This document shows, piece after piece, positions 3,719 to 51,786 of a DNA stretch of 64,000 nt. The DNA lies in the NCBI GenBank assembly GCA_963803805.1, contig CAWDOD010000002.1, positions 928,001 through 992,000 on the forward strand, in the 5' to 3' direction. Position 1 is the first letter of the stretch. Each line of letters opens with the position of its first letter. Source of the DNA: an uncultured cyanobacterium (GTDB taxonomy: Bacteria; Cyanobacteriota; Cyanobacteriia; Cyanobacteriales; CAWCAG01). The position numbers were made by a program, and so were the translations under genes. The notes below the pieces were generated by a model. That model did no database searches. It was given only the letters and a program-made list of their open reading frames with translations, and was not told the origin of the DNA.

Positions 3719-4639
3719 TTACTTTTGCTGTATTAAAGTAGAACCGACAGGACAAATCATGTTTCCTTTAGTATCGAGGGTATCTAAATCTATAACAGGG
3801 GGAGTAAGCGAAGGTTCGTTTGTTCGACAGATTCCCATTACAATAGCTTCTTCTTCAGTAACAAAAATAGCGCCAGTATAGCTAGGAAGTTCTGCTTCAG
3901 TAGGTATAGCGGTTATGAAAATTTTTTGATCATCATTTGTGGGAGAGTCAATGCCATAGCGATAGAACTGACTTTCTAAGGTAGCAACAATACCCATTTG
4001 TTCAAGGTTAGTGGCAAACTTACCCCTCTCTTCAAAATAACTCTGTTGGGCTAATCCTAGAATATTGATGTATTGTACGGGAATGCTGGGTTGAGTTGCA
4101 CTATCAAACTCTTCTGGAGCAATAATTTCAACATCTTCAGGTAATTCAAGTCCCTCAGAAATCTTCGTAAATAAAAGCGCTTCTGAAGTTAATTTTTCGG
4201 GGCGAGTTTCTCCAGGAGAAGTGTTTTCGATACGTAACTTATCTTCACCCGCTAACTCAAATATTGTTGAACTTGTATCTTGATCACTAAAAAAAATATC
4301 TAATTCTTGAGGTTGTGTTTTCCCGTTAATTCGATAACTGGCTTCCAGGGCAACATTCTTTTCCCCTTCTGCAAAAACCAGGAATAACTTGCCTTCAGGG
4401 GCAAAAATCATGATTAAGGTTTCATCCGTATCTGGATCTTGAGTTTGCCATTGCCCCAATAATTGTTGGATTACAGCCTCTGTTTCTCCAGCTTCGGCCT
4501 CAGCTTGATTTTGGCGAAAAGGTGGCTGGGCAACAACGGGGGAACTGCTAGTTATCCCCAACACTAAACAACCAAGGAAAGCTAATTTATACCATTTATC
4601 ATTGTTGGCGTAAGCCTTGCCGTAGGCTACATTTATCAT
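3719..4639 (-). CDS. Secreted protein with an N-terminal beta-barrel-like domain and a C-terminal type IV pilin-like G/H domain
   Basis: Signal-peptide-like N-terminus. C-terminal INILGLAQQSYFEERGKFATNLEQMGI...YRY...LPSYTGAIF...ICRT...CP pattern resembles cyanobacterial Pilin_GH domains. Confidence 0.65.
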   Translation of the reverse strand: MINVAYGKAYANNDKWYKLAFLGCLVLGITSSSPVVAQPPFRQNQAEAEAGETEAVIQQLLGQWQTQDPDTDETLIMIFAPEGKLFLVFAEGEKNVALEASYRINGKTQPQELDIFFSDQDTSSTIFELAGEDKLRIENTSPGETRPEKLTSEALLFTKISEGLELPEDVEIIAPEEFDSATQPSIPVQYINILGLAQQSYFEERGKFATNLEQMGIVATLESQFYRYGIDSPTNDDQKIFITAIPTEAELPSYTGAIFVTEEEAIVMGICRTNEPSLTPPVIDLDTLDTKGNMICPVGSTLIQQK

Positions 4640-4867: not shown

Positions 4868-4922
4868 AAAAAAAATCCCTAGCCTAAGCCAGGGACATAT
4901 TAACCATCAGGGTGCATCTACT
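4868..4922 (-). ncRNA. Putative small RNA, NsiR1-like copy A1
   Basis: Minus strand: TCCGGA (4953-4958) about 31 nt upstream of AGTAGATGCACCCTG, then hairpin TCCCTGGC-TTAG-GCTAGGGA and T8. Confidence 0.65.
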
Positions 4923-4981
4923 ACTCTTTTATTTCTTAGCTTCGTTTTCTATTCCGGATAATTTAAAAACTAGTTAAAAAG

Positions 4982-5033
4982 AAAAAAATCCCCCGACTGA
5001 AGCCGGAGGAGGAATTACCAGGTTGCATCTACC
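4982..5033 (-). ncRNA. Putative small RNA, NsiR1-like copy A2
   Basis: Minus strand: TCCGGA (5064-5069) about 31 nt upstream of GGTAGATGCAACCTGG, then hairpin TCCTCCGGC-TTCA-GTCGGGGGA and T7. Confidence 0.65.
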
Positions 5034-5537
5034 ACTTCTTTATTGCATAGTATTTCTTTGATTTCCGGACAAATTTAAAAAAGGATTCTGCTGAAGACTA
5101 AAATGGTAATTCTTTTGACTAGCTGTAACTATTTTAAGTACCAAATTATACTTTTAAGTAATCTTTCTTTTTATTAATACAGAGCTTAGCTCTTATCAAC
5201 TGACTTTGAAGCACTAACTATTTGAGATCAACTTTTAGTTGTGACATAGATCGTGGCTGTAAAATCACTTATTACTCTAAGATGGTTTTGATACAGAAAA
5301 CCGTGAATTTTCTCATTAAGAACTTTCCGCAGCTACTTCAATTTTGCTTAAACAATTGATAAGTAAAACCATTTTTAAATTTCCTTAGTCTCTAATTAAC
5401 CTAATCGGGAGAAGTAAAATAGGTTTTCTGAGAAAAATCGCAATCTAGTCAACTTTGTTGAGATTTTTATAGTTATTAAAAGCAAGTTGAAGTCCTTAAA
5501 ATCATAGCTAAAATTTATTTATGCTCAGGCAATAACA

Positions 5538-6017
5538 ATGATTCAACTAAAAGAATCACTAGCCCCAAATAAAACTTTTATAATGCCTCGTCTTATGGGA
5601 GCTAATCTTCATAAAGCTCAACTAGAACAAGCTCGACTCATGGAGGCCGATCTGATTCAAGCTAATCTAGTAGGAGCAAAACTTAATCAAGCTGTTCTTA
5701 CCAGAGCAGAAATGACCGTTGCTGATTTAAGAGAGGCTGATCTAAGAGAAGCTAATCTTGAAGGGGCTAATCTTATTGGGGCTAATCTTCAGGGTGCGAA
5801 TCTTGAAGGGGCTAATCTTATTGGTGTTAAGCTTATTGGCGCTAACTTAATAGAAGCCAATCTCACTAATGCAGATTTGCGCGGTGCAGATTTAAGTGCT
5901 GCTAACTTAACAGCAACTGAAGTTAAAAATGCCCGTTTCAGAATTAATCGAGGGATAACTCCTGCAATGAAACTTGACTTGCAACAAAGAGGAGCAATTT
6001 TTGAAGTACCGAAGTAA
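5538..6017 (+). CDS. Pentapeptide repeat protein
   Basis: A(D/N)Lxx repeats throughout, ending in LQQRGAIF. Confidence 0.9.
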   Translation: MIQLKESLAPNKTFIMPRLMGANLHKAQLEQARLMEADLIQANLVGAKLNQAVLTRAEMTVADLREADLREANLEGANLIGANLQGANLEGANLIGVKLIGANLIEANLTNADLRGADLSAANLTATEVKNARFRINRGITPAMKLDLQQRGAIFEVPK

Positions 6018-9177: not shown

Positions 9178-9253
9178 GTGATTAGAATTGATCCGGAGCA
9201 AGGGATTTGTAGTCTGAAAAACGATTGTATAGCAAAGATAATTTTTAATCGTT

Positions 9254-9915
9254 TTGGGTAAGATTATGAAAACTATTGATAAGCGTCTGATTCCTATATT
9301 TACTGGTATTATTCTCGGTTTGGGTGGCTTAGGTTTATTCTTAGATTTGAACCATCGTAGTTCTTCTATTTCCACAGCCCCCAATAGCAATGATAATTCT
9401 TCTACCACCTCTGAGGTGACGAACTCCACCAGAAAGCCAGCCTTCTCACTTTTGAGATTTCCCCTTCTCCAGTTCGTCGAAAAAGTTTCTCCTCCCCCTT
9501 CCTCACCTCTCAGTGCCTAGTCAATCTCTAGATGGGGCGAATAAAGCCAAGGAGCGATAATAATTCTCCTCTGACTATTTACGTTGCAGACAATCAATGT
9601 AATAGTTTAGTAGCTCAAGAAGTCTCTTTTCGAGGAGATGATAGTCCTGTTGAAACAGCAGTAGGTCAAGTGATTGAGCAGATGACTAGTAGTGATTTTG
9701 CGGTGGCTGGTTATCGGGTAAATATAGACCCTCAAACTCAGGTTGCCACAATAGATTTGCGTCGTTCTCCTGATAGCCAAAGACCTTTTGCTGCTTTATC
9801 TAGTTGTGAAAAGTTTGCTCTCTTCGGTAGCCTGGAAAAAACCCTTGTGAATAATCCTCAATGGAATGTTCAAAAGGTGGTTTTTACAGAACAGGGAGAG
9901 GAAATAGTTCTTTAG
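9254..9915 (+). CDS. Membrane-anchored GerMN/sporulation-germination-like protein, split by indel(s) at about 9430-9530
   Basis: ORF 9254-9520 supplies a TM anchor and Ser/Pro linker. ORF 9532-9915 supplies the YVADNQC...GYRV...ATIDLR...LSSCE...FTEQGEEI domain. Confidence 0.6.
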
Positions 9916-33118: not shown

Positions 33119-33192
<74 letters not shown>

Positions 33193-35994: not shown

Positions 35995-36068
35995 AAAAGA
36001 AAAGGCTTCTGGGAGTCTGGCCGTGTTTCGACCCCAAAAGCCTTTTCTTTAATTTTTGCTCCTCACAC
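35995..36068 (-). ncRNA. yfr2: Yfr2-family small RNA (putative)
   Basis: Minus strand starts GTGTGAGGAG, followed by a long stem closing the 12-nt loop GAAACACGGCCA; -10-like TATAAG just upstream. Confidence 0.72.
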
Positions 36069-36182
36069 AATCATAACTTATACTTTTCTTGCCTATTTAT
36101 CTAGGGGAGTAGTGACACTTTTCAAACTGACACTCACCTCTAATTGATAGTTGATAATTACCTCTCCTTGTCTCCCCCTGTT

Positions 36183-49673: not shown

Positions 49674-50489
49674 CTAACTTTTCTCTATTGTGTAATTGCT
49701 ACCTTGATGGGAACGAAAGAGATGGGAATGTTGGGGATGATAAAGCTGCGATCGCACTTTTTGATCAGCTTTTAAGGCAGGACTAATTATATAAAGAGTA
49801 GTACGAATTAAATCTTGTTCTTGAGTAATTTTAGCCATTTCTTCAAGAGTAACCATCAAGACTTTTTCATCAGGCCAACCTATGCGAAAACAGATAGCCA
49901 CTGGGGTATCAGGGGGATAATGCTGAAGTAACTTTTCCTGGGCCGCTTCTACATGACGGGCAGCGAGGTAAAGGCAAAGACTCCCTTGGTGGGCAGCTAA
50001 AGAGGCTAAATCCTCCGACTCTGGTACAGCAGAAGCACGACCGCTAATACGGGTTAAGATAATTGTTTGTACCAAGCCCGGTACTGTCAGTTCCGTTTGT
50101 AGTGTGGCTGCTGCGGCTTGAAAGGCACTGATTCCTGGTACTAATTCAAAAGGGATTCCTGCTTCTTTTAAAGCGTTCATTTGCTCATGAATAGCGCTGT
50201 ACAAACTCAAATCTCCAGAGTGTAAACGTACCACAATGCGATTAGCTTTTACCCTTTCAATCATCAAAGGTAAAATTTCTTCTAAGGTTTTGTTACCAGT
50301 ACGTACTAACTCCGCATCGGGGGGTACATCTTGCCAAATTTGTTGAGGAACTAAAGAATCAGCAACTAAGATTGTATCTGCTTGTTGCAAAATTTTTAGG
50401 GCTTTAACTGTTAGTAAATCTGGATCACCAGGTCCAGCACCAATGATATAAACGGCTGGGGTTAAGGAAGAATAAGAAGATGAAGACAT
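49674..50489 (-). CDS. cobM: Precorrin-4 C11-methyltransferase
   Basis: GAGPGDPDLLT, RLHSGD.SLYSAI.EQ, VPGIS and SQLY motifs. Confidence 0.93.
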   Translation of the reverse strand: MSSSSYSSLTPAVYIIGAGPGDPDLLTVKALKILQQADTILVADSLVPQQIWQDVPPDAELVRTGNKTLEEILPLMIERVKANRIVVRLHSGDLSLYSAIHEQMNALKEAGIPFELVPGISAFQAAAATLQTELTVPGLVQTIILTRISGRASAVPESEDLASLAAHQGSLCLYLAARHVEAAQEKLLQHYPPDTPVAICFRIGWPDEKVLMVTLEEMAKITQEQDLIRTTLYIISPALKADQKVRSQLYHPQHSHLFRSHQGSNYTIEKS

Positions 50490-50589
50490 GAATATAAGTT
50501 AAAAGTTAAAAGTTGTTGGTGGAAGGCGATTTTATCTAGTTTGGTAAACTCTTCCGGATCTGAACCCAAAAGCGAAGTAATAAAGAAGT

Positions 50590-50640
50590 GGTAGATGCAC
50601 CCTGGTTAAGCTCTGGAGTTTTCACTTCAGAGCTTTTTTT
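50590..50640 (+). ncRNA. Putative small RNA, NsiR1-like copy B1
   Basis: GGTAGATGCACCCTGGTT, hairpin AAGCTCTGGAG-TTTTCA-CTTCAGAGCTT and T-tract; TCCGGA centred at about -35. Confidence 0.7.
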
Positions 50641-50738
50641 GTTACTAATTATTCCTCTAATTTCCTAAAGTTAAATAAGAAAAAGAAATATCTGATTACT
50701 TTCCGGATCTGAACCCAAAAGCGAAGTAATAAAGAAGT

Positions 50739-50790
50739 GGTAGATGCACCCTGGTTAAGCTCTGGAGTTTTCACTCCCAGAGCTTTTTTT
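50739..50790 (+). ncRNA. Putative small RNA, NsiR1-like copy B2
   Basis: Same unit as B1; the 3' arm carries an extra C. Confidence 0.7.
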
Positions 50791-50888
50791 GTTGCTAATT
50801 ATTCCTCTAATTTCCTAAAGTTAAATAAGAAAAAGAAATATCTGATTACTTTCCGGATCTGAACCCAAAAGCGAAGTAATAAAGAAGT

Positions 50889-50939
50889 GGTAGATGCACC
50901 CTGGTTAAGCTCTGGAGCGAAAACTCCAGAGCTTTTTTT
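50889..50939 (+). ncRNA. Putative small RNA, NsiR1-like copy B3
   Basis: Same core; perfect hairpin AAGCTCTGGAG-CGAAAA-CTCCAGAGCTT and T-tract. Confidence 0.7.
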
Positions 50940-50973
50940 GGTTTTGGGAATTATTTAAAATTGAGCGATCGCC

Positions 50974-51786
50974 CTAACTCATAGTTGATTTTTTCCGAGT
51001 AGAAATCACATTGGGAAGAGGACGCTTAAAGCCATAGAGCCAAATTAGCCCAGCTACACCGAGGGTAATAGCAATTAAACTAATAACCTGAGCAATGCGT
51101 AAAGGCCCTAACATCAAACTATCTAACCGCAGTGCCTCAATCCAGATACGACCGCTACTATAAGCTATTAAGTAAACTAAAGCTAGGGTTCCTATTTTCA
51201 AAACTTGAGGATGCCTCAAGCCCCAGAAGAAAAGATACATCAGCAGAGAAAAAACAGCGATATTCCAAACCGACTCATAAAGGAAAGTGGGATGAAAGTA
51301 GCCCTCTGCTTGGGGAATATAAAGTTTCCAAGGTAAGTCTGTGGGACTACCATAGGCTTCTGAGTTAAAGAAGTTACCCCAACGCCCAATTGCTTGCCCT
51401 AAAGCCAGGGAAGGAACAGCCAAGTCTGCTAGTTGCCAAACCGAGACTTTATTGATACGGGCGAAAATCAACCCGGCAATAGTGCCTCCCAAAATCGCGC
51501 CATGAATAGCAATACCACCATGCCAAATAGCGAAAATTTCCGTAGGGTTCTGGGCATACTGGGGCCATTGAAATAATACATAATAAAGTCTGGCACAGGG
51601 AATTGCCCCAATAACCAGCCAAATTGCCAAATCAGCCAGCAAATCAGGATTAACTTGGCGGCGTTTAGCTAGATACTGAGAAAGGGCTACCCCAATTAAG
51701 ACAGCACTAGCTATTAGTACACCGTACCAGCGAACAGTAACAGGTCCGATGGTAAAAATTTCTGGCCCAGGAGAAGTAAATTGCAT
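50974..51786 (-). CDS. lgt: Prolipoprotein diacylglyceryl transferase
   Basis: [24 protein letters not shown] and HPTFLYES motifs. Confidence 0.96.

Follow-up and report, generated by a model that had tools for sequence, protein, structure and literature searches.

NsiR1 has been described as a heterocyst-specific RNA of nitrogen-fixing Nostocales whose genes adjoin hetF (PMC4030482; PMC6596454). In the stretch of 64,000 nucleotides of cyanobacterial DNA analyzed here as a whole, hereafter called the window, a short repeat array between lgt and cobM had been read in an earlier note as three complete small RNA genes of an NsiR1-like family, each with its own TCCGGA promoter, in a host that did not look Nostocalean. 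This raises the question whether the array encodes true NsiR1 RNAs, and which role such RNAs could play in an organism of this kind.

Three NsiR1 genes in tandem between lgt and cobM

Tandem Repeats Finder reported a single array with a period of 150, 2.6 copies, 96% matches, and no indels (score 720). Together with an alignment of the units, this placed the array at positions 50552-50940 of the plus strand, where three units of about 150 bp follow each other head-to-tail with their starts spaced 149 and 150 bp apart. Both flanking genes are located on the opposite strand, as had been proposed. The cobM gene for precorrin-4 C11-methyltransferase (49674-50489, minus strand; TIGR01465, 331.9 bits with a cut-off of 259.65; PF00590) is divergent to unit 1, with 100 nt between its start codon and the RNA start of unit 1. 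The lgt gene for prolipoprotein diacylglyceryl transferase (50974-51786, minus strand; TIGR00544, 248.5 with a cut-off of 118.9; PF01790, 275.8 bits) is convergent with unit 3, with 34 nt between its stop codon and the end of unit 3. With cobM and lgt as neighbours, the array also lacks an adjacent hetF, as the earlier note had observed.

Each unit contains a TCCGGA -35 box (50553-50558, 50702-50707, and 50852-50857, plus strand), and direct reading of the sequence confirmed that the core GGTAGATGCACCCTGGTT follows at 50590, 50739, and 50889, i.e., 32 positions past the last TCCGGA base in every unit. In a covariance-model search, all three units matched Rfam model RF02399 (NsiR1) over positions 1-60 of 60 with scores above the gathering score of 39 bits, namely 44.4 bits for unit 1 (RNA at 50589-50641), 44.6 bits for unit 2 (50738-50791), and 47.1 bits for unit 3 (50888-50940), all on the plus strand. 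This supports the family assignment proposed in the earlier note. The units proved to be complete as suggested, but the Rfam boundaries give RNAs of 53-54 nt instead of about 51 nt. Because the E-values calculated for the whole window were between 1.7e-5 and 3.8e-6 and TCCGGA is rare (553 occurrences in the 5.3-Mb genome), the threefold co-occurrence of motif and family is beyond chance.

The 5′ stretch of the units, UGGUAGAUGCACCCUGGUU, does not vary in its first 16 nt across the order and is predicted to be single-stranded (19 nt in unit 1), and UGGUAGAUGCACCCUG was found in every unit upstream of a Rho-independent terminator. A terminator scan detected stems of 11-12 pairs followed by T7 in unit 1 (stem 50608-50635, T7 at 50634-50640) and unit 3 (stem 50907-50934), and a total of 3 terminator-like sites was observed compared to 0.7 expected in shuffled sequences. 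Unit 2 was missed by the scan because of a one-base bulge in its hairpin, but its fold is alike (-18.2 kcal/mol), and the postulated hairpin with U-tract (U7) is present in each unit. Between units 1 and 2, the spacer shows a single difference and the 3′ arm of the hairpin two (three positions in total), and unit 3 diverges from the others in the loop and the 3′ flank, which agrees with the initial impression that the copies differ mostly in loop and 3′ arm. When the three units were aligned with 34 distinct copies from named lgt loci, positions 2-16 of the 5′ 16 nt were invariant in all 37 sequences, and 5 of the 9 predicted pairs of the terminator helix showed compensatory double changes. 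The array is thus a set of three complete head-to-tail genes for NsiR1-family small RNAs.

Promoter type and gene content of the host

In Anabaena, the DIF1 motif TCCGGA was reported to serve the ECF-type sigma factor HetZ as its -35 element and not to be a direct HetR site (PMC13342950). The earlier description of TCCGGA as the DIF1 motif of HetR-dependent promoters consequently holds with respect to the motif, whereas a direct HetR site has to be replaced by a sigma-HetZ -35 box. The published consensus is TCCGGA N16-17 TGNA N7-9 T, and the genome scan in that study allowed up to two mismatches (PMC13342950). In unit 1, N17 separates TCCGGA from aGTA (50576-50579), and a further N9 leads to the start T at 50589. 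All array promoters have this form, TCCGGA N17 aGTA N9 T, and fit the consensus with one mismatch, and the modelled 5′ end of the RNA lies 30 nt past TCCGGA in all three units. The mismatch in the -10-like element affects the T of TGNA that was reported as contacted (PMC13342950), which counts against a sigma-HetZ promoter.

A second NsiR1 locus in the window spans positions 4868-5034 between a pilin-like gene and a pentapeptide-repeat gene and contains two copies on the minus strand. The first (4982-5069; 44.5 bits) comprises an RNA at 4982-5034 and TCCGGA at 5064-5069, and the second (4868-4958; 53.4 bits) an RNA at 4868-4923 and TCCGGA at 4953-4958. The copy with the RNA start at 5034 has a perfect sigma-HetZ consensus (TCCGGA N16 TGCA N9 T). 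In the entire host genome, seven NsiR1 copies of the TCCGGA type were found (six exact, one with a single mismatch). Among 92 distinct NsiR1-like copies, which were evaluated by script in loci fetched from 17 genomes, the -35 window contained an exact TCCGGA in 45 and a one-mismatch variant in 22, and the copies at named lgt loci carried the motif in 54 of 54 cases (50 exact, 4 with one mismatch). In a second, conserved promoter class, a HetR-site-like palindrome, (G/A)AGGGG-N5-CCCCTC (sites AGGGGGTGACACCCCTC), takes the place of the -35 region. A literature search on HetR, sRNA, and palindrome returned nothing on such a class of NsiR1 promoters.

The genome of the host is 97.4% complete and was compared with genomes of the same genus (G001) and the same family (G002) and with G008 as positive control. 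It encodes HetR (NF009718, 553.8 bits with a cut-off of 489) and, directly upstream of hetR, a patX candidate in the form of a 76-aa ORF with RGSGR, which has a TCCGGA motif 46 nt upstream. The HetZ profile scored 552.4 (cut-off 550), HetZ_related 621.9 (cut-off 612), and HetZ_rel_2 616 (cut-off 400), and a patU-like ORF is located directly 3′ of hetZ. The host has therefore kept hetR, patX, and hetZ-patU plus two hetZ paralogues. Its hetZ gene shows a 1-base deletion compared to G001 which shifts the frame after approximately codon 50, leaving only profile positions 51-366 in frame, while hetZ is intact in G001 and G002 and both HetZ_related and HetZ_rel_2 are intact in the host. The deletion could be genuine or could stem from a sequencing error; in the former case, only the HetZ-related paralogue could serve, provided that it recognises such promoters.

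The hetZ family was identified with the NCBIfam profiles. Candidates rejected in the search included the ORFs behind GGG-N5-CCC sites or TCCGGA promoters, which belonged to unrelated families only (22 proteins compared with NCBIfam, 10 with Pfam), four irrelevant pairs in which a DIF1-promoter gene came after an ORF of 330-480 aa, and a 449-aa protein with no relative among solved structures. A perfect HetR site (GAGGGGTCTAACCCCTC) at C2:1363122 lies 5′ of a 177-aa ORF; this ORF matched no Pfam or NCBIfam family and is not recognisable as hetP.

Profile searches found no nifH, nifD, or HetP-family gene in the host, G001, and G002; the best nifH match in the host reached 216.9 bits, below the cut-off of 394.35. 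In the control genome G008, nifD and four HetP-family matches were present. In a tree of Lgt proteins, the host was placed outside a 24-row clade containing all 20 rows of heterocystous families. Gene content and Lgt position, rather than morphology, thus suggest that the host is non-heterocystous, in line with the earlier doubts about a Nostocalean origin. Since neither nitrogenase nor HetP was found, the array RNA presumably has a role other than heterocyst commitment or differentiation in this organism.

Phyletic distribution and conservation of the lgt-cobM locus

NsiR1 was detected above the gathering score in 22 of 41 related genomes. HetZ-family matches (E ≤ 1e-40) were obtained in the identical 22 genomes and in none of the other 19. 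Among the NsiR1-bearing genomes, hetR is present in 19 and nifH in 11, and the other 11 are without nifH. Across the 41 genomes, NsiR1 travels with hetZ rather than with nifH.

The position between lgt and cobM is also conserved. The order lgt-NsiR1-cobM was found in G002, G004, G008, G015, and G022, and of 76 judgeable named lgt loci, 43 have an NsiR1 paralogue in the lgt-cobM spacer, oriented opposite to the two genes, with carriers including Nostoc, Anabaena, Microcoleus, and Planktothrix. This paralogue is composed of the body CCCUGGUU and the AGCUCUGGAG hairpin, and the type is tied to the lgt-cobM spacer across the order. Multiple copies occur at the locus in G002 (two) and at two lgt loci of Coleofasciculaceae (three and four), and in G001 one copy resembles unit 1 and one unit 3. 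This NsiR1 paralogue has long resided in the lgt-cobM spacer, in lineages with and without heterocysts, and the array is a local triplication of it. The earlier note had called the family recently amplified, which is correct for the last step, as units 1 and 2 are near-identical, but not for the locus, which is old and widely conserved. We found no paper joining NsiR1 with lgt; Ionescu 2010 (J Mol Biol) and Brenes-Alvarez 2020 (Environ Microbiol), which were outside the search, may mention NsiR1 copies off the hetF array or in non-heterocystous strains.

These data are probably best explained by three NsiR1 genes that arose by local triplication of the old lgt-cobM paralogue, are transcribed from HetZ-type promoters, and specify a trans-acting base-pairing RNA. 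When the HetR-to-HetZ circuit is on, RNA polymerase with HetZ or an intact paralogue would fire the three array promoters, which would multiply the dose of the RNA, and its invariant 5′ seed would then base-pair with mRNAs. Transcription, sigma-factor dependence, dosage effect, and targets are all predicted here from sequence features.

The conserved position could alternatively mean that the array RNAs act mainly in cis, with convergent transcription into the 3′ end of lgt or pairing with a read-through lgt-cobM transcript tuning the two genes, in the manner of NsiR1.1, which acts in cis on hetF in Nostoc. Such an effect would be compatible with a trans-acting RNA, and it would account for position and orientation being conserved in the 43 named loci and the five further genomes, for the tight spacing (at named loci, the NsiR1 3′ end and the lgt stop are a median of 48 nt apart, NsiR1 and the cobM start 115 nt), and for the hairpin sequence being more conserved in the lgt-cobM paralogue than in other NsiR1 copies. 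Moreover, the minus strand of the lgt-cobM spacer showed no sigma-70-like promoter, and its hairpins are without a subsequent T-run, which makes read-through from lgt into cobM plausible. We nevertheless regard a mainly cis-acting function as rather unlikely. The locus is split in G001, where 125 nt separate cobM from a divergent NsiR1 copy that is flanked by a different gene on its other side, so that cobM must be transcribed from a promoter of its own in this genome, with no need for overlap with the RNA. G011 and G029 have retained the RNA beside only one of the two genes, lgt and cobM are adjacent with the RNA absent at 16 named loci, and recombination breakpoints at dispersed repeats are expected without selection. 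The part of the RNA that is invariant is the 5′ seed, and because every other copy in the genome has this seed too, a shared partner in trans is favored.

A further alternative is that the array is a silent relic, i.e., that the sigma factor is broken in this strain, heterocysts are not formed, and the copies are kept by recent duplication only. The hetZ frameshift in this assembly and the failure to find nifH, nifD, and hetP in the host are in favor of this assumption. We consider it quite improbable, as promoter, seed, and terminator are intact in the three units and in all seven TCCGGA-type copies of the genome, whereas truly decayed copies, such as the one at C2:609155, look different. The elements are also kept in G001 and G002, both with intact hetZ, a HetZ-related paralogue is intact in the host itself, and in the 11 nifH-negative genomes 50 of 72 NsiR1 copies have an exact or one-mismatch TCCGGA and 16 of 72 the palindrome.

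Candidate targets and comparison with known systems

If the array RNA acts in trans by base-pairing, the most promising candidate target at present is the hetR 5′ leader. This leader contains an 11-nt site, CAUCGGGGUGC, approximately 118 nt upstream of the start, which is complementary to nt 9-19 of NsiR1. Co-located sites are present in 6 of 13 hetR leaders, with variants that retain pairing, and none of 400 shuffled seeds reached this count, with the energy threshold and the position window set after seeing the data. The site pairs more weakly with the array copies (10 pairs, 2 G-U) than with GAUG-type copies, and its distance from the start codon counts against a function as target. When the 22-nt 5′ part of NsiR1 was scanned genome-wide for duplexes with 4722 crude ORF starts, no conserved target was compelling. 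The best-scoring match was simply the opposite strand of another NsiR1-like gene, and a site 99 nt upstream of a cyclase/TIR/NTPase gene (-30.9 kcal/mol) was rejected, with three substitutions in G001 and no counterpart in G002. The leaders of patX, hetZ, patU, both hetZ paralogues, the ORF behind the perfect HetR site, and a CHAT gene showed ordinary duplex energies only. The two targets known from Nostoc are not present in the same form: HetP-family genes were not detected in the host, G001, or G002, leaving the hetP-like target alr3234, whose translation NsiR1 represses in Nostoc through pairing at the start region of the mRNA, without a counterpart, and there is no hetF beside the array.

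The main partner of the invariant 5′ stretch might also be a protein, with the multiplied RNA titrating, or being chaperoned by, an RNA-binding protein such as PatR. NsiR1 was enriched in the CLIP-seq targetome of Nostoc PatR with a log2 fold change of 5.6, and homologues of patR have been reported from 1655 genomes of cyanobacteria (PMC11797042). Furthermore, 16 nt invariant across many families is stricter than most sRNA seeds need, and a multi-copy dosage would fit titration. We give this possibility little credence, since pairing of Nostoc NsiR1 with the alr3234 and hetF mRNAs was shown (PMC9045159) and PatR also binds other sRNAs and terminators, so that binding need not equal function. 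Finally, an assembly artefact that turned one or two true units into three is very improbable, because, although near-identical 150-bp repeats are hard to count from short reads and the Logan contigs of two metagenome runs break in the repeats with none spanning the whole array, the units are non-identical with private differences in each, the relatives are multi-copy here too, and a 161-nt contig of run X1 equals 50742-50902 without a difference and bridges unit 2 into unit 3; this bridge does not count as independent support because X1 may be the source sample.

A wider proposal, which we offer tentatively and regard as doubtful in its full extent, is that NsiR1 is not an invention of heterocyst-forming strains but belongs, as the RNA component, to a HetR/HetZ circuit that is ancestral in filamentous-type cyanobacteria. 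A single invariant seed would be expressed from two promoter classes, the sigma-HetZ TCCGGA type of the array and the ancient lgt-cobM copy and the HetR-site-like palindrome, and in heterocyst-free lineages it would pair with the 5′ end of the hetR leader and thereby close a feedback loop. Amplification at lgt-cobM would have occurred independently here and in Coleofasciculaceae and would tune the gain of this loop.

The closest known system is NsiR1 of Nostoc/Anabaena sp. PCC 7120 (RF02399). In Nostoc, this RNA depends on HetR and is made specifically in early (pro)heterocysts upon nitrogen step-down. The array RNAs belong to the same covariance-model family, have a similar length (~55-60 nt in the family), and share the 5′ motif, and in both organisms each copy has an individual DIF1 promoter and an intrinsic terminator and the copies are tandem, slightly divergent 'siblings' (PMC9045159; PMC4030482). 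In PCC 7120, however, 12 copies are located upstream of hetF, whereas the array has 3 copies with a 150-bp period between lgt and cobM and, for want of a hetF neighbour, contains no copy antisense to the hetF 5′ UTR, as occurs in Nostoc. Unlike PCC 7120, the host lacks detectable nifH, nifD, and HetP-family genes, and the array belongs to the paralogue type with the body and hairpin described above. Slightly divergent sibling sRNAs that may act additively or on different targets are also found in E. coli, Pseudomonas, Bacillus, and Sinorhizobium (PMC9045159); these are unrelated in sequence and regulators, and the comparison concerns the logic only.

With respect to transcription, sigma-HetZ (DIF1) promoters in Anabaena include those of hetR, patS, patX, patU, sigC, and hep genes (PMC13342950). 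The array promoters share with them the TCCGGA box at -35, the spacer length (16-17), G-12 and A-10 in the -10 element, and the distance to the start (7-9 nt) (PMC13342950), and patX of the host carries a DIF1 motif as in Anabaena. They differ in having A for T at the first -10 position, in being predicted to drive a non-coding RNA in a heterocyst-free host, and in that the hetZ orthologue of this host is frameshifted in the assembly. Another parallel is provided by the filamentous cyanobacterium Limnospira indica PCC 8005, which is without heterocysts and N2 fixation and has retained hetR-patS (PMC8400943). Its RNA162, a single 57-nt gene described as 'resembling NsiR1', was noted in passing in a radiation transcriptome, in an account that, in the part concerning RNA162, offers no analysis of promoter, copy number, locus, or distribution (PMC8400943).

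The role of hetR, patX, and hetZ in heterocyst-free species has been called a mystery (PMC11298460). RNA-seq of ΔhetR and ΔpatX mutants exists for the non-heterocystous Leptolyngbya BL0902 (PMC11298460). A short, multi-copy HetZ-type promoter driving an sRNA would offer both a direct read-out and a candidate effector for this question. For genome annotation, an Rfam match to NsiR1 should not count as evidence of heterocyst formation. An organism in which neither nitrogenase nor HetP was detected has retained NsiR1 together with its promoter type and has even multiplied it, which suggests that the regulatory circuit of this 'heterocyst' RNA is older and more widespread.

Three NsiR1 genes between cobM and lgt

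The intergenic region between cobM (window positions 49674-50489, minus strand) and lgt (50974-51786, minus strand), both scoring well over their NCBIfam cut-offs, contains a tandem array at 50552-50940 (period 150, 2.6 copies; 96% matches without indels). Its three units are oriented on the strand opposite to both genes, and their TCCGGA boxes, read from the sequence, start at 50553, 50702 and 50852. GGTAGATGCACCCTGGTT begins 32 positions past the last base of the hexamer in every unit, and each contains the hairpin AAGCTCTGGAG/loop/CTCCAGAGCTT and, after it, a run of seven T. A terminator scan picked up the hairpins of units 1 and 3 (3 sites vs. 0.7 expected from shuffles); that of unit 2 has a one-base bulge and a similar fold. 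Units 1 and 2 are distinguished by three positions, and unit 3 diverges from them in the loop and the 3′ flank.

The whole window was scanned with Rfam at gathering thresholds. Five of the seven matches were to NsiR1 (RF02399, gathering threshold 39 bits), and units 1, 2 and 3 scored 44.4, 44.6 and 47.1 bits. The array thus comprises three units of a known sRNA family, each with promoter, RNA and terminator intact, as the earlier note had proposed from repeats, hexamers, hairpins and neighboring genes; its statements that the copies differ mainly in the hairpin loop and 3′ arm and that hetF does not adjoin the array, which is flanked by cobM and lgt, also held. The 5′ 19 nt of the RNA are predicted by folding to be single-stranded. 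The other two Rfam matches were a Cyano-1 RNA (35996-36072, minus strand, RF01701, 51.9 bits vs. 41) and a tRNA (33119-33192, minus strand, 74.6 bits).

The remaining two NsiR1 copies (4982-5034, 44.5 bits; 4868-4923, 53.4 bits) lie 114 bp apart on the minus strand in a second locus (4868-5069), and both have TCCGGA at -35 with the spacing of the array. This locus is flanked by genes for a pilin-like protein (3719-4639, PF16734) and a pentapeptide-repeat protein (5538-6017), and the pair of NsiR1 copies was also found in the same-genus genome G001. In the entire host genome (5.3 Mb, 11 contigs, 97.4% complete), 10 NsiR1 matches were obtained at E ≤ 0.001, 8 of them above gathering.

Promoters and HetZ-related genes

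The TCCGGA motif (DIF1) was originally linked to HetR-dependent heterocyst promoters. A 2026 paper shows that it serves as the -35 element for the ECF-type sigma factor HetZ, with the promoter consensus TCCGGA N16-17 TGNA N7-9 T (PMC13342950). The array promoters read TCCGGA N17 aGTA N9 T and that of the copy at 5034 TCCGGA N16 TGCA N9 T; the Rfam match starts at the last T of both patterns. The host genome contains 553 TCCGGA hexamers (composition estimate ~764), and just 27 gene-upstream matches to TCCGGA N16-17 NGNA were found, including patX and a site at window ~9192-9197, 62 nt 5′ of a crude 88-residue ORF (9254-9520). TCCGGA also stands right before the first ATG of a gene for a CHAT-domain protein (caspase-like, HFDGHG and SAC motifs; contig C2:1359299-1360446), which is apparently frameshifted twice because it is read in three overlapping frames.

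A script found 92 distinct NsiR1-like copies in loci fetched from 17 of 41 genomes, 72 of them from 11 nifH-negative genomes (counts for these in brackets). The -35 window held an exact TCCGGA in 45 copies (30), a one-mismatch variant (TCCTGA, TCCCGA, CCCGGA) in 22 (20), a GGG-N5-CCC palindrome in its place in 19 (16) and a half palindrome in 2 (2); one promoter region was masked (1). Of the 3 copies (3) with neither element, two resemble chance words in coding sequence and one is a decayed copy. A 3′ hairpin of ≤ -8 kcal/mol was present in 77 of the 92.

Five further NsiR1-like genes of the host with the same 5′ seed lack TCCGGA (C2:608827(+), C2:160845(-), C3:60442(-), C10:382134(-), C10:381911(-)). 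In its place, AGGGGGTGACACCCCTC or a degenerate version of it is centered at ~-32 and ends ~25 nt before GTAGATG, with a TATAxT box after it. Eleven other genomes of the order show this arrangement too (G001, G002, G006, G008, G011, G013, G015, G021, G029, G032, G039), including one of heterocystous type. The palindrome, a candidate HetR site, resembles the published HetR site GAGGGGTCTAACCCCTC and agrees with its required core GGG-N5-CCC (PMC4192349). Our literature search found no published account of palindrome-type NsiR1 promoters. The Anabaena hetP promoter has a 17-bp HetR site (GAGGGGTCTAACCCCTC), an exact copy of which occurs at C2:1363122-1363138; a 177-residue ORF ~135 nt downstream matched no Pfam or NCBIfam family.

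The 41 genomes comprised the host, one same-genus and one same-family genome, and 38 from 37 further families of the order; related genomes are not independent, yet nearly each of the 41 represents a separate family. NsiR1 above gathering was present in 22, a HetZ-family match at E ≤ 1e-40 in 22, nifH above cut-off in 21 and hetR in 20. The NsiR1 and HetZ sets were identical and the remaining 19 genomes had neither, so that co-occurrence of NsiR1 with hetZ was perfect. hetR was found in 19 of the 22 NsiR1 genomes (not in G011, G034 and G039), and G031, with hetR and without HetZ, gave an NsiR1 match of just 32.9 bits. Half of the NsiR1 genomes (11) had nifH and 11 did not.

The host itself has HetR/PatX and HetZ/PatU genes and lacks nitrogenase and HetP. 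Its hetR (NF009718, 553.8 bits vs. 489) is directly preceded by a 76-residue ORF with a signal-like N-terminus, RGSGR close to its end and TCCGGA 46 nt upstream, which fits the description of patX. The 347-residue ORF after hetZ (NF037963, 552.4 vs. 550 bits) shares 35% identity (E 3e-46) with the ORF after hetZ of the heterocystous-type control G008 and was thus assigned as patU by position (placement according to PMC7377430). HetZ_related (621.9 vs. 612 bits) and HetZ_rel_2 (616 vs. 400 bits) were also present. The host hetZ is one base short compared to G001 (GGGCC-AAAAA against GGGCCGAAAAA; C11, about 306083), which shifts the frame after about codon 50; the gene is undamaged in G001, G002, G008 and G015, and the missing base may reflect either a sequencing error or a loss specific to this strain.

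Neither nifH, nifD nor the HetP family was found in the 97.4% complete host genome, the top nifH match (216.9 bits vs. cut-off 394.35) probably being a protochlorophyllide reductase subunit. All three were also missing from G001 and G002, which belong to the same family (98% complete); G008, the positive control, had four HetP genes in addition to nifH and nifD. A quick maximum-likelihood tree was computed for Lgt (83 rows), and all 20 rows from seven families that we take to be heterocystous fell in one 24-row clade (SH-aLRT 94). The host was outside this clade and grouped weakly (85-91) with Microcystaceae, Aphanothecaceae, Xenococcaceae and Pleurocapsaceae rows; since Lgt is a single short gene, only the exclusion was relied on. 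The earlier note suspected that the host is not Nostocalean; gene content and tree point to a host that is not heterocystous.

Proposed mode of action and a candidate target

We propose that the array units would be transcribed by a HetZ-type polymerase, that the 19-nt single-stranded 5′ stretch would base-pair with mRNAs, and that three promoters would provide a higher RNA dose. When the three units were aligned with 34 distinct copies from named loci, positions 2-16 were invariant (37/37), and both sides had changed in 5 of 9 pairs of the terminator helix. A protein partner may coexist with mRNA pairing, as PatR binds NsiR1 in Nostoc (PMC11797042).

Nostoc NsiR1 pairs with alr3234 and hetF mRNAs (PMC9045159); these targets are lacking as such in the host, and a genome-wide duplex scan of the host gave no convincing conserved target. 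The most notable lead is CAUCGGGGUGC, located ~118 nt upstream of hetR right after a TATAAT (C9, locus L011:2215-2230), to which NsiR1 nt 9-19 are complementary. Sites with ≤ -18.5 kcal/mol at -111 to -129, an energy threshold and position window chosen after the data were seen, occurred in 6 of 13 hetR leaders (that of the host and those of G001, G002, G015, G016 and G029), and their variants (CG vs. UA, C vs. U) still pair with the unchanged RNA. Among 400 shuffled seeds, the maximum was 3 co-located genomes vs. 5 observed (G001 left out). The hetR leader of G008 has no such site, and the array copies form just 10 base pairs with the host site. We regard the hetR leader as a possible but rather doubtful target.

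The lgt-cobM locus and its relation to known NsiR1

The body of the array copies (CCCUGGUU and an AGCYCURGAG hairpin) is common to single copies in other genomes. In G002, G004, G008, G015 and G022, such a copy occupies the lgt-cobM spacer, on the strand opposite to the two genes; G011 has it next to lgt only and G029 next to cobM only. From a species collection, 80 named lgt loci were taken, which are the best Lgt matches to the host and no random sample; 4 were too short. Of the 76 judged, 43 had lgt-NsiR1-cobM, 6 NsiR1 after lgt with cobM not next or beyond reach, 16 lgt-cobM without NsiR1, and 11 lgt alone. Heterocystous families contributed 15 of the 43 (Nostoc, Anabaena, Fischerella, Nostochopsis, Scytonema, Calothrix, Rivularia, Rhizonema, Heteroscytonema). 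The arrangement was found in 11/11 Microcoleaceae (with Planktothrix), 5/7 Leptolyngbyaceae and 2/10 Coleofasciculaceae (5 others have the RNA with cobM out of reach), and also in Elainella and Aliterella. All 54 copies at these loci carry TCCGGA (50 exact, 4 one-mismatch). Between the lgt stop and the RNA 3′ end the median gap was 48 nt (34 in the window); between the RNA and the cobM start it was 115 nt (about 100 in the window).

This conserved position suggests a cis role of the RNA on lgt or cobM, against which the split loci and the 16 lgt-cobM loci without RNA count. Should the hetZ deletion prove real, the array may be a silent relic, but the elements are intact in all copies and in relatives. 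We favor an RNA acting in trans by base pairing.

Concerning copy number, units 1 and 2 stem from a recent duplication of 150 bp. Two copies are present at the lgt-cobM site of G002, and the G001 locus is split, with a unit-3-like copy at lgt and a unit-1-like copy at cobM on separate contigs, so that two or more copies were present in the ancestor of the genus. Both G001 copies are internal to large contigs, and the split is consistent with recombination between dispersed NsiR1 repeats. The recent amplification assumed in the earlier note thus applies to units 1 and 2, whereas the locus is old. An assembly artefact is unlikely, as each unit has private differences and units 2 and 3 are bridged by a 161-nt contig from a run that may itself represent the source sample. 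Two Coleofasciculaceae MAG loci have tandem arrays of 3 and 4 copies after lgt (L025:3938-4142, L055:5222-5522; period ~100 nt, TCCGGA on every copy), which are independent of the host array.

Tandem nsiR1 genes lie near hetF in all heterocystous genomes according to PMC4030482, and the 12 Nostoc copies are upstream of hetF (PMC9045159). RNA162 of Limnospira indica was the only mention outside the heterocystous group that we found (PMC8400943), and none of the papers searched mentions both NsiR1 and lgt. The array resembles Nostoc NsiR1 in covariance model and promoter, but does not match the described location, host and target. By model and promoter it is NsiR1, and with these differences we place it as a variant of NsiR1.
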